From contig CAZBLB010000001.1 in NCBI GenBank assembly GCA_964492765.1, positions 1,736 to 65,735 on the forward strand: a DNA stretch of 64,000 nt, given 5' to 3'. This document shows positions 9,745-21,458 of this stretch, in pieces. The translations under genes and the position numbers were made by a program. The notes below the pieces were generated by a model that was not told the DNA's origin, ran no database searches, and saw nothing but the letters and a program-made list of their open reading frames with translations. This DNA comes from an uncultured Candidatus Saccharibacteria bacterium. Its GTDB lineage: Bacteria > Patescibacteriota > Saccharimonadia > Saccharimonadales > Saccharimonadaceae. How positions within the stretch are numbered: position 1 is the stretch's first letter; each line of letters opens with the position of its first letter.

Positions 9745-10046
9745 AAAGAGCAAAAATAGCTTTTAGGATTATAAAGAATTTTTACAATGAACTATTTTTA
9801 ACCACTCGGTTTGTTTTTGATTTTTATGGCGTCTAAAGAAATACTCACCGAGATAGTCGAAAAAATCCACGGATGAGCGAAATCGATGGCCGGTGTTTCC
9901 CGAAGCGCATTTCGCGAATCCGACTGGAGTTTTGAGACTATCCCGGATGAGTGTTTCCCAAGCCAGAAAAATGCAAAAACAAACCAGATGGCCAAAAATA
10001 ATTCTTGCCTAAAAATTCCCAATCCTAAAAACTATTTTTGCTCTTT
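9745..10046. repeat. 302-nt rod-like imperfect palindrome (element A)
   Basis: 9745-9770 pairs with 10021-10046 (25/26); successive arms pair inward to a tip near 9886-9905; core shared with 21287-21458. Confidence 0.88.
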
Positions 10047-10079
10047 TTCGCACAATACGCTTATGCTATAATATTATAT

Positions 10080-10997
10080 ATGTCTAACAAAGTCATGGTT
10101 ATCGGCACAGGCAACGTCGGCGCTTCCATTGCCTTTTCTCTTATAAACCAACGCACCGCCGTCAACGAACTCGTCCTCGTCGATATTAACGTCGATGACG
10201 CCGAAGGCGAAGCTATGGATCTTCGCGACGCTCTCGCTGTCGCCCCTAGCTACCTTAAAATAAAATCCGGCTCATATAAAGACGCGCGCAGTTGCGATAT
10301 TATTATCATCACCGCCGGCGCCAACCAAAAACCCGGCGAAACTCGCCTTGACTTACTCAAGAAAAACTCCTCTATCTTCCGCCCCATGGTCAAAGAAATC
10401 ATGGCCTGTGGTTTTCGCGGCATCTTTCTCGTCATCACTAACCCCATGGACGTCATGACTTATCTCACCTGGAAATATTCCGGCCTCCCCTCCGACCACG
10501 TCATCGGCAGCGGCACCGTCCTCGACTCTGCTCGTCTCCGCCTCAAGATTTCCGAAAAACTTTCTATCCACCCAAAGTCCATCCACGCCTACCAAATTGC
10601 CGAACACGGCGACACCGAGTTTGCTCTCTGGTCTTCCGCCGACGTCGCCGGCCAGCCTTTAACCACTCTGCTCTCCGAAATCTCCCTCATGGAGATAGAA
10701 GATTTTGCCCGCAACGAGGCCTACGAAATCATCGCCAAAAAAGGCGCCACTCACTATGGCATCGGCGTCTGCACCACCCACATCATCCACTCCATCTTAA
10801 ACGACGAACGTCGCGTCATGCCTATCTCCTCCTACGACGACATTAATGATGTCTATACCGGTTTCCCGACCGTCCTCGGTCGTCGTGGTGCCATCAAACG
10901 CCTCGATATTAAAATGTCCGAGTCCGAAGCCATAAAATACCAAAAGTCCGTCAACACCCTAAAAAGCGCCATCAAATCTCTCCACGTCCGCGCCTAG
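10080..10997 (+). CDS. ldh: L-lactate dehydrogenase
   Basis: GTGNVG Rossmann motif, TAGANQKPGETRLDL (Gln at the specificity position), DSAR, EHGD, KKGATHYGIG; ATG 10080 lies 7 nt after TATAAT. Confidence 0.95.
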   Translation: MSNKVMVIGTGNVGASIAFSLINQRTAVNELVLVDINVDDAEGEAMDLRDALAVAPSYLKIKSGSYKDARSCDIIIITAGANQKPGETRLDLLKKNSSIFRPMVKEIMACGFRGIFLVITNPMDVMTYLTWKYSGLPSDHVIGSGTVLDSARLRLKISEKLSIHPKSIHAYQIAEHGDTEFALWSSADVAGQPLTTLLSEISLMEIEDFARNEAYEIIAKKGATHYGIGVCTTHIIHSILNDERRVMPISSYDDINDVYTGFPTVLGRRGAIKRLDIKMSESEAIKYQKSVNTLKSAIKSLHVRA

Positions 10998-11009
10998 CCC
11001 TGACAGCTA

Positions 11010-11037
11010 ATATATATATATATATATATATATATAT
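11010..11037. repeat. (AT)14 microsatellite
   Basis: Perfect dinucleotide run between ldh and the DUF2207 promoter. Confidence 0.95.
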
Positions 11038-11077
11038 TCACCTAGTTTTTGACCCATAAAAATGCTATACTAAAATC

Positions 11078-18820: not shown

Positions 18821-18859
18821 CTCGCCAACTTTTTCTCTACTTTATGCTATAATTTTTTC

Positions 18860-20212
18860 ATGAACATCCTTATTCTTGGTTATGGCCTCGAAGGCAAGTC
18901 TGTCGAAAACTACTTTAAGTCCGGCCCCTCTCTCTACGAACACACCAAAATCGACGTCCTAGACAAATTTGCCCTAGACGACCTCAAAGAAAAAGATTTT
19001 ACCGGCTACGACCTCATTTTTCGCACTCCTTCCGTCCGCCCCGACGCCATCCCCGCCCCCCAAGAAAAAATCACCAGCCTCACCAAATTCTTTTTTGACC
19101 GTTGTCCGGCGCCGATTATTGGCGTCACCGGCACCAAAGGCAAGGGAACTACCTGCACCCTCATTCGCGACTTACTCAGAAGCTTCCTCCCGCTCACTTC
19201 AAAAGTCTTTCTCGTCGGCAACATCGGCACTCCCGCTCTCGACGTCCTCCCCGAACTTACTAAAAACGACGTCGTGGTTTACGAGCTTTCCTCTTTTCAA
19301 CTCTGGGACCTAGAGAAATCCCCCCAGGTTTCTGTCGCGCTCCGCATCGAGCCCGACCACCTCGACGTCCACAAAGATTTTTCCGAATACCTCACCGCTA
19401 AAAAGAACATTACTCTCCACCAAACCCCCGACGATTTTCTCGTTTATTTCCAAAACAACAAAAACACCAAAGCTCTCGCCGACGTCTCTCCCGCCCAAAA
19501 ACTCTCCTATCCGTTAAAAGAAAAATCCCCTCTCGAGACCGAACTTTTAAACTCGCTCGCTATCCCTGGCGACCACAACAAAGAAAACGCCGAGGCTGCC
19601 CTTCTCGCCTGCTTTGTATATGCCAAAAAGCTCAAAATCACCCCTGAAAATACTCGTTTTGAGGACTTTTTAGACGCTAATTTTTCGGAGTTTCGCTCCG
19701 CGCTCAAAAATTTTCAACCCCTCCCCCACCACATCGAATTTGTCCGCGAACTTAACAGTATAAAATACTACGACGACTCCTTTTCGACCGTCTATCCTGC
19801 TCTCGAAGTTGCCATCAAATCCTTCCAAAACACCCCGCTCGTCCTCATCGCTGGCGGTAAGGATAAAGGTTTTCCTCTCGACCCCGTTAAAAGAATTATT
19901 TTTGACAACCCCAACCTCATCAAAGCCGTCCTTATCGGCGAAACCGCCCCTGCTCTCGCCGAAAACGAAGACCCCAAAAAGTTCTTCCACGCCGGCACTG
20001 ATTTTGACCTAGCCGTCCAAAAAGCCCGCGAATTTGCCGAAGACTATCTTTCTCGCGCCGAAGCAAATTCCGACACTTGTCTCGTCGACGCCAAAAAGCC
20101 CATTGTCCCTCCCGTCGTTCTGCTTTCGCCCTGCGCCTCCTCTTTTGATATGTTCGAAAGCTACAAACAGCGTGGCGACCTTTTCAAAGAACTCGTAAAC
20201 TCACTAAACTAA
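18860..20212 (+). CDS. murD: UDP-MurNAc-L-Ala:D-Glu ligase
   Basis: GVTGTKGKGTT, VGNIG, ELSSFQL, DHLDVH, YYDDSFST, LIAGGKDKG, LLSPCASSFDMF. Confidence 0.96.
   Translation: MNILILGYGLEGKSVENYFKSGPSLYEHTKIDVLDKFALDDLKEKDFTGYDLIFRTPSVRPDAIPAPQEKITSLTKFFFDRCPAPIIGVTGTKGKGTTCTLIRDLLRSFLPLTSKVFLVGNIGTPALDVLPELTKNDVVVYELSSFQLWDLEKSPQVSVALRIEPDHLDVHKDFSEYLTAKKNITLHQTPDDFLVYFQNNKNTKALADVSPAQKLSYPLKEKSPLETELLNSLAIPGDHNKENAEAALLACFVYAKKLKITPENTRFEDFLDANFSEFRSALKNFQPLPHHIEFVRELNSIKYYDDSFSTVYPALEVAIKSFQNTPLVLIAGGKDKGFPLDPVKRIIFDNPNLIKAVLIGETAPALAENEDPKKFFHAGTDFDLAVQKAREFAEDYLSRAEANSDTCLVDAKKPIVPPVVLLSPCASSFDMFESYKQRGDLFKELVNSLN
19683..19709 (-). repeat. dispersed motif copy 3 (in murD)
   Basis: Reverse complement TTTTGAGCGCGGA-GCGAAAC-TCCGAAA. 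Confidence 0.9.
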
Positions 20213-20213
20213 C

Positions 20214-21293
20214 ATGGACTCGCTCAAAAAACAACTCGCCGCTCTCCAAAACGACCTCGACCAAAGCTGGGCGCGCCTTTCTCTCGACGAAAAACTTAAA
20301 AAACTTGACTCTCTAGAAAAAGAAATCGCCCTTCCTGAACTCTGGACTAATCCCGACCGCGCCAAAGCCAAAAACGCCGAGTTTTCTCACCTAAACGACG
20401 AGGTCGCCCCGTGGTCTCTCTTAAAGTCTCAAGTCTCCGACCTCTCCGAGCTTATCGACCTCGGCGGGGAAGAGCTCAAGGATGAAATCTCCGCCCAACT
20501 TTCCGCCATGTCCACCTCTCTCGAAAACCTCAAAAAATCCCTCCGTTTCACCGGCGAGTTCGACCAAAACAACGCCATCTTGCGTATTACCGCCGGCGTA
20601 GGCGGCACCGAAGCTATGGATTGGGCGTCCATGCTCGAGCGCATGTATCTCCGCTTTTTCGAGCAAAACGGCTTCCGCGCCACTCTCGTCGAACGCGTCG
20701 AAGGCGAAGAAGCCGGCATTAAAACCGCCGTCTACGAGATAACCGGTACGAACACCTACGGCACTCTAAAATCCGAGCATGGCGTTCACCGTCTCGTTCG
20801 GCTGTCTCCCTTTAACGCCGACAATCTCCGCCAAACTTCCTTCGCTCTCGTCGAAATCCTCCCCGTTTTGACGGACGACTCCGAAATAAAAATCGACGAC
20901 AAAGACCTCCGTATTGACGTCTATCATTCTGGCGGTCATGGCGGCCAATCCGTCAACACCACCAACTCCGCCGTCCGTATCACCCACCTCCCGACCAACA
21001 CCGTCGTCGCCATCCAAAACGAACGTTCCCAACTTCAAAACAAAGAAAAAGCCCTCGAAATCTTACGTGGCAAGCTCGCTCAAATGAAACTCGAACAAAA
21101 AGCCGAATCTATCGACAAACTTCGCGCCGGCGAGTCCGCCAAATGGGGTCAACAAATCCGCAACTACGTCCTGCAACCTTATAAATTAGTCAAAGACACT
21201 AGGACCAAGTTTGAAAGCGCTGAAGTAGAGAAGGTATTAAACGGCGACATTTCAGACTTCATAGACGCATACTTAGAATCAAGAACAGCTTAG
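20214..21293 (+). CDS. prfB: peptide chain release factor 2, no programmed frameshift
   Basis: GVHRLVRLSPF (SPF), GGHGGQ, ERSQLQNK, IRNYVLQPY. Confidence 0.97.
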   Translation: MDSLKKQLAALQNDLDQSWARLSLDEKLKKLDSLEKEIALPELWTNPDRAKAKNAEFSHLNDEVAPWSLLKSQVSDLSELIDLGGEELKDEISAQLSAMSTSLENLKKSLRFTGEFDQNNAILRITAGVGGTEAMDWASMLERMYLRFFEQNGFRATLVERVEGEEAGIKTAVYEITGTNTYGTLKSEHGVHRLVRLSPFNADNLRQTSFALVEILPVLTDDSEIKIDDKDLRIDVYHSGGHGGQSVNTTNSAVRITHLPTNTVVAIQNERSQLQNKEKALEILRGKLAQMKLEQKAESIDKLRAGESAKWGQQIRNYVLQPYKLVKDTRTKFESAEVEKVLNGDISDFIDAYLESRTA

Positions 21294-21458
21294 ATTGGCT
21301 TAGACTAACTTTGCTTATATAAAAATTTTTACAATGAATTATTTTTGGTTTAGTCGTTTCGAGCACGCGTCCCATCCGCGCCGCAGAAACAGATTAAACC
21401 AAAAATAATTCTTGACTAAAAATTCCATAAGCGAAGCTAGTCTAAACCAATCTAAGCT
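21287..21458. repeat. 172-nt rod-like imperfect palindrome (element B)
   Basis: 21287-21318 pairs with 21427-21458 (3 differences in 32); GAATTATTTTTGGTTTA/TAAACCAAAAATAATTC is perfect; core shared with element A. Confidence 0.9.

Follow-up and report, generated by a model that had tools for sequence, protein, structure and literature searches.

A putatively mobile family of nested hairpin repeats with a shared bulged module in ruminant-gut Saccharibacteria

A window of 64,000 nt from a ruminant-gut Saccharibacteria (TM7) genome carries two long imperfect hairpins, denoted element A (between lysS and ldh) and element B (between prfB and ftsE), which were analysed here on the basis of sequence only. 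We consider it reasonably probable that A and B belong to a small, non-coding, non-autonomous family of palindromic repeats in ruminant-gut Saccharibacteria that is mobile at the DNA level, similar in kind to the Rickettsia palindromic elements (RPEs), to REPINs and to transposable elements of the miniature inverted-repeat kind (MITEs). At least 14 copies of 88-300 nt, from at least six genomes or lineages, were found in the ~330 kb of related sequence that could be searched. Each unit would be a long imperfect hairpin with a conserved asymmetric module at its base, inserted at the DNA level typically between a stop codon and the next promoter, often over the last codons of a gene and in one case in frame within a gene. 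New units or apex variants would enter the apex of a unit already present or take its place. The outcome would be a Russian-doll hairpin, in which old, locus-specific shells form the outer stems around a young, nearly identical inner core. A survey of the literature on MITEs, palindromic elements and structured RNAs in Saccharibacteria and the candidate phyla radiation (CPR) returned no paper describing this family, which is apparently undescribed so far.

Results and discussion

Predicted folds of elements A and B

The cores of both elements lie where the original prediction had placed them, with left cores starting at 9771 (A) and 21319 (B) and right cores at 9992 (A) and 21399 (B), the latter two agreeing at 27 of 28 positions. 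Even when three mismatches were tolerated, the core patterns each matched the 64 kb only twice, in A and in B, compared to zero matches expected from shuffles. The region 9740-10050 (A) folds as a single hairpin of -129.1 kcal/mol (shuffle mean -58.5, z = -13.5), and the region 21280-21475 (B) gives an RNA fold of -83.3 kcal/mol (z = -15.3). With DNA parameters the same structure was obtained for B, at -53.3 kcal/mol (z = -13.3). In a sliding-window fold of the whole window, A and B take ranks one and two, with the third well behind. All of the fold features proposed earlier, i.e. the asymmetric ATAAA/CC loop, a duplex of 8-9 bp, a 2-nt bulge, 3 bp and a bulged T, are present in the predicted folds. 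The 2-nt bulge is AC at 21415-21416 in B and CC at 10008-10009 in A. The outer arms are complementary over 26 nt in A (96%) and over 37 nt in B (86%).

The family and its subfamilies

The left core was used to scan 185,579 species, each represented by a single genome, which returned 51 loci, only six of which are true copies (L031, L042, L049, L059, L017 and L067), all in metagenome-assembled genomes (MAGs) of Saccharibacteria. The right core follows exactly 52 nt downstream in five of five checkable copies, as in B. The L017 contig breaks off right after the left core, and L017 and L067 are two halves of one element across a contig break. The core of B is 92-100% identical to those of L031, L042, L049, L059 and L017/L067, so that the B-type recurs in at least three other ruminant Saccharibacteria genomes. 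As the 52-nt interior is conserved as well, B is the canonical unit, with a 108-nt core set within an outer stem that is specific to the locus and measures ~26 bp, or 37 bp in the case of B.

Two covariance models, R1 built from six copies and R2 from the type D/E copies L068, L079 and L089, extended the family. R1, which scores the core of B at 171 bits, revealed a type C subfamily (L017:454-630 and L067:3858-4033) with the same loop signature and different core and outer stems, a type D/E subfamily (L068:2514-2693), and two short forms (L068:11065-11152 and L017:2252-2339). In the short forms the left ATAAAAAA is joined to the right core at an AAAAAT microhomology, with the same junction at two unrelated loci. 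Further D/E copies are found after prfB in L079 and in L089, a 304-kb metagenome contig. R2 cross-matches the B-type copies in the same orientation. On these models and alignments at least three subfamilies, B, C and D/E, can be distinguished, and the additional members keep both the bulges and the pairing that had been proposed as family hallmarks.

Other collections were less productive. Right-core scans of JGI metagenomes and IMG/VR gave zero matches. The D/E apical motif gave six matches in IMG/VR, all in unrelated GC-rich coding sequence, and the D/E 5' motif gave nine matches in metagenomes, one of them true (L089) and eight of them chance matches beside tRNA in gut Bacteroidota-like contigs. 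At the Rfam gathering threshold only a tRNA at 3934-4017 was reported in the window, and in E-value mode the elements gave far-sub-threshold matches only, mostly to miRNA-precursor hairpins. BLAST against phage and plasmid collections returned no match; the elements are not phage- or plasmid-derived.

A bulged module shared by all subfamilies

All subfamilies contain a 5'-(A)UAAA/3'-CC internal loop, an A/U-rich helix of 8-9 bp and an unpaired AC on the 3' strand, with a G directly before the dinucleotide and a 3-bp helix after it. The dinucleotide is GA in type C and CC in A. In D/E units an A-CG...CG-[AC]-U motif occurs twice, stacked. The loop and the unpaired AC are kept across subfamilies while the adjacent helix covaries, with the compensated versions AAUUUUUA/UAAAAAUU, AAAAUUCA/UGAAUUUU, AAAAUCCA/UGGAUUUU and AAGUUUUG/CAAAACUU, and the loop and bulge asymmetries are conserved though the remaining hairpin tends to perfect pairing. 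A conserved loop and bulge with a covarying helix is the pattern predicted by structure-specific recognition, and a protein reading the bulged core, as originally suggested, is plausible.

Element A as a nested composite

Element A as a whole spans 9745-10046 on the + strand, between the lysS stop codon (9724) and the ldh start codon (ATG at 10080). In the predicted fold its outer left arm (9745-9770), a locus-specific shell, pairs with the outer right arm (10021-10046), which is followed by a T-run (CTCTTTTTC). The B-type core within it consists of a left arm at 9771-9799, homologous to 21319-21346 of B, and a right arm at 9992-10020 that carries the CC bulge and the 3' loop CC. Along the left core arm the order is 5' loop ATAAA, the 8-9 bp helix strand GAATTTTTA, CAA, the bulged T and GAACTATTTTT. 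The apex holds a complete unit of the D/E-type at 9819-9972, matched by R2 over its full length (81.6 bits, E 4e-19) and containing CTAAAGAAA, TCCACGG, CCGACTGGA and TTTCCC. The conserved apical motif of this subfamily, GATGGCCGGTGTTTCCCGAAGCGCAT, was located at 9885-9910 (+ strand) by comparison with the other copies; TGGCCGGTGNTNCCCGAA is common to A, L068 and L079, and the L089 variant carries two changes. Flanked by other stems, the apical motif has further copies in metagenome contigs, with loose ends at 9880 and 9912. Element A is thus a B-type element (outer stem and core arms) with a complete D/E unit nested in its apex. The inner stem of A looked unrelated to that of B because the interior of A is a separate, nested element.

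In public annotations, element A carries a 61-aa open reading frame (ORF; within 9886-10071). It has no ribosome-binding context and starts in the apical loop, and was rejected as a gene, being probably spurious. Its frame is the one that is open in other D/E copies and read through in the tsaD gene of L089 (see below).

The nesting can be followed between closely related strains. The contig L082 (99% SerS identity) begins inside locus A with a plain B-type apex, followed by the right core of A (GCC variant) and by its right outer arm, which is duplicated in tandem. Contigs from run X16 likewise have the B-type apex there, so that the nesting of a D/E unit, as seen in the window, is a recent difference at strain level. 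Within the species, A and B are unchanged across 16 contigs.

Element B and the 3' end of prfB

Element B (21282-21463, + strand) lies between the prfB stop codon (TAG, 21291-21293) and the ftsE start codon (ATG, 21508). Its left outer arm (21282-21318) includes the last prfB codons together with the stop. The canonical 108-nt core (21319-21426) comprises the left arm, the 52-nt apex (21347-21398) and the right arm with the AC bulge. The right outer arm (21427-21463) overlaps tandem 10-nt repeats (ATCTAAGCTA, 21450-21469) that reach 6 nt past the arm, mirrored by a tandem duplication of the 10-nt unit on the left at 21286-21305 (GCTTAGAT..). The copy number of this unit is polymorphic: run X13 is without one right-arm copy, and in the run X1 strain both extra copies are absent, giving a shorter outer stem.

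The upstream gene prfB (20214-21293, + strand), encoding release factor 2 (RF2), has its 3' end recoded by the element. RF2 ends in ...DAYLESRTA* in the window vs. ...DAFLEQ* in relatives in which the site is empty, and measures 359 aa in the window and the L068 lineage vs. 356 aa at empty sites. The L068 lineage carries a short form at site B, and its RF2 ends in ...YLESRLA*, with the last residues read from the left arm of the element as in the window. A relic of the old prfB end persists to the right of the element (CTTGAACGATAA in L068, TTGAACAGTAG in the run X1 strain). The site is empty in L072, L076 and L102, with a 24-nt spacer, and in L079 a different (D/E) element sits just past an intact LEQ* stop. 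Read together, these alleles indicate that B rewrote the last codons of prfB.

The prfB-ftsE spacer of L079 also contains two further short GC-rich hairpins upstream of the D/E unit (L079:18829-18925, CCGGAGGCGG...CCGCCTCCGG-like and CTGGGCGGG...CCCGCCCAG). In L098 (18270-18737) and L099 (18220-18657) an opposite-strand T4SS-pilin-like gene follows prfB instead of ftsEX, so that the gene order, elsewhere strictly conserved, is interrupted locally in this related lineage.

Filled and empty sites

At each of the three insertion sites examined, the nearest relatives have no element. Besides site B, the lysS-ldh gap measures 355 nt in the window and 45 nt, with site A empty, in the relatives L098-L101. 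The third site, between a DUF2207 gene and serS, holds a D/E element in L068 and is empty in the window, L076, L098 and L100; the left arm of the L068 element includes the conserved GGW* codons. The DUF2207-serS spacer of L072 contains a different GC-rich hairpin of ~140 nt (L072:2126-2290, GGCGAAAAGTCCTTA...TAAGGACTTTCGCC), and the end of the DUF2207 gene appears to be an insertion hot spot for hairpins.

In L089 an element lies in frame inside tsaD. Residues 2-296 and 359-402 of the L089 protein align with residues 2-274 and 282-323 of Thermotoga maritima TsaD, leaving ~58 extra residues between the positions aligned to 274 and 282. The frame of this insert has zero stop codons across the unit in the free-standing D/E copies L068, L079 and L089. 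The neighbours of all copies are housekeeping genes, as judged from Pfam-checked ORFs.

Variable shells and an exchangeable core

Between loci, mean identity is 95% for the core (100% for L042 vs. L059) and 52% for the outer stems. The orthologous copies L031 and L049 are 93% identical in the core and 89% in the outer stem, in flanking DNA of 80-89% identity, so that their divergence appears as ordinary evolution. The apex variant of L031 (GTTCCGAGT...GGAAC) is, however, that of L042 and L059 in another genome (98%), and L049 shares its variant (GTTTCGAGC...GAAAC) with L017/L067 (97%). Core variants are, in this sample, distributed independently of shells. Combined with the replaced apex at locus A and with the nested units, this mosaic indicates that the inner unit is exchanged or inserted at the hairpin tip whereas the outer stem stays with the locus. 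On this reading, A and B share a core and differ in flanking and inner stems as a result of apex nesting or replacement.

The outer and inner stems had originally been described as unrelated in sequence, yet each self-complementary. Self-complementarity of the outer stems stands, but these are diverged homologues, as the copies share a CTTTTnnnnAT(T/A) end. The inner stems of A and B do differ, the cause being the nested unit in A. The family was also said to be the reverse of a MITE, conserved inside and variable at its ends. The reversal is one of appearance only: what varies are locus-specific shells, what is conserved is an inner unit that can be exchanged or nested, and the reversed look follows from an old shell around a young core. 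A weak likeness of some inner stem ends to the core arm (AATTATTTTTGG) hints that the shells might be decayed older units. Outer stems as decayed copies of the core arm were not retained as a finding, with five of 12 stems aligning at their inner end to AATTATTTTTGGTTT (p 0.03-0.1 each).

DNA-level or RNA-level pairing

Conserved loops and bulges with covarying helices would also be displayed by a host-selected structured RNA, i.e. a cis-acting 3'-UTR or intercistronic element (a terminator, an RNase III or stability site, a protein-binding RNA) or a small RNA gene, with its core bound by a host protein and its stems under compensatory evolution. We regard such an origin as unlikely. In the B-type outer helix 20 of 26 pairs are changed on both sides and two on one side only; 94.9% of cells pair, vs. 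86% in shuffles and at most 51% with the partner slid, and the covariation score was reached by zero of 500 shuffles. For D/E, double changes are seen at 16 of the 50 aligned pairs and one-sided changes at none, so that the latter, the G·U intermediates of RNA evolution, are nearly absent overall. On the sense strand, G·U pairs do not outnumber A·C mismatches, and the fold of the antisense strand is at least as stable as that of the sense strand (-146.8 vs. -128.5 for A, -91.8 vs. -82.1 for B). The scarcity of G·U intermediates, the similar numbers of G·U and A·C and the stable antisense fold argue against stepwise compensation at the RNA level, and the earlier proposal of a core acting as folded RNA is not borne out by the pair statistics. 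The patterns fit arms that served as templates for one another. Quasipalindromes are documented to mutate by template switching (PMC7202029), and the symmetric, copy-number-polymorphic 10-bp tandem duplications on the arms of B point in the same direction.

The genomic setting speaks in part for an RNA role. A, B, L042, the L017 short form, the type C copy of L067, both L068 copies, L079 and L089 are co-oriented with transcription, the elements lie exactly between a stop codon and the next -10 box, and a T-run follows the right arm in several copies, although none follows B. A run X1 contig, ambiguously labelled RNA, has B joined to the 3' end of prfB. Against this stand the missing elements at the orthologous sites of the nearest relatives, the in-frame copy in tsaD and the recoded C-terminus of RF2. 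A scan for intrinsic terminators (a short G+C-rich stem with a T-tract) found zero sites in both regions, and metatranscriptome contigs cover prfB and ftsE without the element, at a depth too shallow to decide. Promoter activity, with TTGACT of the right core and TACAAT of the left core as candidate boxes, was likewise dismissed, since the spacing is wrong and a promoter scan finds none inside the elements. In a DNA-level repeat family, these 3'-UTR hairpins would probably still influence termination or mRNA stability, as a by-product.

How units may move and be maintained

Our best estimate of the mechanism combines a structure-specific, trans-acting enzyme with DNA-level correction of the arms. 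The asymmetric module would be read in its folded, single-stranded form by a putative enzyme that moves or exchanges units, and arm complementarity would be maintained by template switching within the hairpin or by arm-to-arm conversion and not by selection on RNA. Candidate enzymes would be of the HUH/Y1-type, a recombinase or a hairpin-processing repair nuclease, none of which was found in the sequence examined. A more specific version, in which the module is the recognition and cleavage site of a putative structure-specific enzyme that inserts hairpin units, folded as single strands, by preference into hairpin tips, strikes us as improbable. Its targets would include units of the same family and small hairpins at gene ends, amounting to a CPR-specific hairpin-into-hairpin transposition or homing; unlike IS200/IS605, RAYT and integron chemistry, it would act on units without conserved termini and choose its target by structure.

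Recombination might also suffice without any dedicated enzyme, an explanation that we consider rather unlikely. Palindrome tips would be cut in replication (SbcCD-like) and repaired from an ectopic copy or from uptake DNA in naturally competent hosts, template switching would extend and correct the arms, and the module would be merely the most recently copied part. Apex variants that are mosaic relative to their shells, the replaced apex at locus A between 99%-identical strains, the symmetric duplications on the arms of B and the same ATAAAAAA-right-core short form at two unrelated loci are all in line with this, as is the established nature of quasipalindrome template switching (PMC7202029). 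Still, recombination alone leaves unexplained how a unit first arrives without prior homology, as in tsaD, after the prfB stop of L079 or in ancestral spacers of 24-45 nt. Nor does it account for an asymmetric loop and an AC bulge that were never "corrected" in any subfamily, even though pairing is otherwise kept along the arms.

Several observations weigh against a mobile family moved by an enzyme in trans. No transposase, HUH, recombinase or reverse transcriptase gene is found near any copy in the window and the other loci. Among copies between same-strand genes, 8-9 of nine are co-oriented with these genes, which fits an RNA role or a strand-specific mechanism on single-stranded DNA (ssDNA). 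Target-site duplications and conserved termini are not definable from filled vs. empty sites, as these are too diverged. The strain evidence comes partly from short-read contigs, which can be chimeric at repeats, with L082 being the cleanest case. The scan behind the B-type copies used an exact-match pattern and so favours conserved cores, and the ~330 kb of related sequence does not give copy number per genome or the full distribution.

A partner enzyme in the window was likewise not apparent among the Pfam-checked ORFs, all of which are housekeeping genes, with several smaller ORFs outside the scan. In the window and the other loci no insertion sequence with matching ends was found, and the termini differ between copies. 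At B, sequence from the ancestral end of prfB (TTGAAC...) is found right of the element, with a diverged copy (TTAGAA) on the left, and at the DUF2207 site the right arm mirrors the gene end; the sites are too diverged for a target-site duplication to be called.

Comparison with known palindromic repeats

RPEs are inserted between genes and in frame in housekeeping genes with one frame left open, and lack a recognisable transposase, terminal inverted repeats or target-site duplication (PMC10969869). The Saccharibacteria units resemble them as ~100-150 nt palindromic units of a reduced genome with several sequence families, and in the in-frame tsaD insert with a frame open across three free-standing D/E copies, a likeness by kind and not by homology. 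They differ in that they occur in a different phylum and are mostly intergenic, abutting stop codons. To our knowledge, neither recursive apex nesting nor a bulged module shared across subfamilies is a feature of RPEs.

A strict attC-like or REP/REPIN-like site, served by an integron integrase or by a RAYT (Y1) transposase of a known family, appears very unlikely. The geometry does recall a folded attC site, which is set by its fold, is strand-specific and has a stem, an asymmetric unpaired spacer, a further stem with extrahelical bases and a variable terminal structure. The attC analogy of the original prediction goes no further than this, as the elements lack R/L boxes, integrase and cassette arrays and are flanked by lysS, ldh, prfB, ftsE and similar genes. 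The absence of R-boxes had been noted correctly: the loop-adjacent bases differ in every copy (GGATT/AATCC, GAGATA/TATCTC, ACAACA/TGTTGT, GCTTAT/ATAAGC) and no RYYYAAC/GTTRRRY boxes occur at the stem base. Whereas attC sites have conserved boxes at the outer end of the stem, the outer end is variable in the Saccharibacteria family.

REPINs, which are non-autonomous and form hairpins, depend for their movement on a RAYT present in single copy (PMC3116915, PMC3333891), and REP hairpins are preferred insertion targets (PMC3116915, PMC3333891, PMC1525189). The likeness to the REPIN/REP-BIME-RAYT system extends to non-autonomous intergenic hairpins with arms that stay complementary, to recognition of REPs as folded single strands, and to a strand bias of copies that fits ssDNA mechanisms. 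However, REPINs have conserved terminal REPs around a variable spacer, in contrast to a conserved internal part and variable outermost arms here. The Saccharibacteria units are also far longer than REPs (20-40 nt), no conserved GTAG-type 5' tetranucleotide is present, and no Y1 or RAYT gene was seen in the ~330 kb of related sequence.

ERIC, Correia and pneumococcal BOX-RUP-SPRITE repeats are imperfect palindromes of ~100-200 nt that are transcribed in intergenic positions, often at 3' ends, and show size variants from internal indels, mutual insertion and terminator-like or RNase-target side effects (PMC10969869). Unlike the present family they have conserved termini (terminal inverted repeats), with a TA duplication in Correia elements, and no conserved asymmetric internal module with covarying helices across subfamilies. 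As judged from sequence comparison, the family is distinct from these RPE, REPIN and ERIC-type kinds by its variable termini, shared asymmetric module and recursive apex nesting.

Genomic context

Identical copies of the window genes are present in ENA ruminant metagenome assemblies and in GCA_017404215.1, and their homologues carry the name Candidatus Saccharibacteria. Most intergenic gaps of this compact genome are below 100 nt, and A and B make up two of the larger ones. Both elements as well as lysS (8222-9724, upstream of A, Pfam tRNA-synt_2), ldh, prfB and ftsE are on the + strand. An extended -10 box TGCTATAAT at 10064-10072 (+ strand) ends 7 nt before the ldh start codon, and a -10-like box TACTATTAT at 21493-21501 (+ strand) precedes that of ftsE, kept as TGCTATTAT in relatives. 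With the -10 box right before the ATG, each element is thus placed between a stop codon and the next promoter.

Many genes of the window share this arrangement, with a TGnTATAAT extended -10 box 6-8 nt before the ATG and no Shine-Dalgarno sequence (e.g. 8205-8213, 10064-10072, 18843-18851, 23303-23311, 24487-24495 and 46848-46856). Other genes have AGGAGG in place of the box. This suggests that leaderless mRNAs may form a large share of the transcripts of this genome.

A 22-nt inverted repeat at 60294-60506 was considered as a third family member in the window and is unrelated to the family. Long stretches without an ATG-started ORF are found at 60996-63019 (the longest, ~2 kb), 56547-57264 and 25689-26473.

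Conclusions

The shell-and-core architecture of the family offers a clean natural system for studying how hairpin DNA is recognised and moved and how palindromes are kept up. If an enzyme indeed reads the bulged module, it would constitute a new structure-specific DNA or RNA tool. For genome annotation, gene callers place spurious ORFs inside the elements, as with the 61-aa ORF in A. Public short-read contigs start or end within the hairpins (L082:1-170, L082:11352-11458, L017:1-88 and L067:1-136); with L082, L017 and L067 ending inside elements, the repeats break short-read assemblies and probably limit MAG quality. Mobile DNA is considered scarce in the tiny genomes of Saccharibacteria and other CPR bacteria. 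Here, the repeats recode C-termini and add peptides to essential enzymes, e.g. RF2 and TsaD, and self-nesting repeats of this kind would provide these bacteria with a hidden supply of variation in both genome and proteins.

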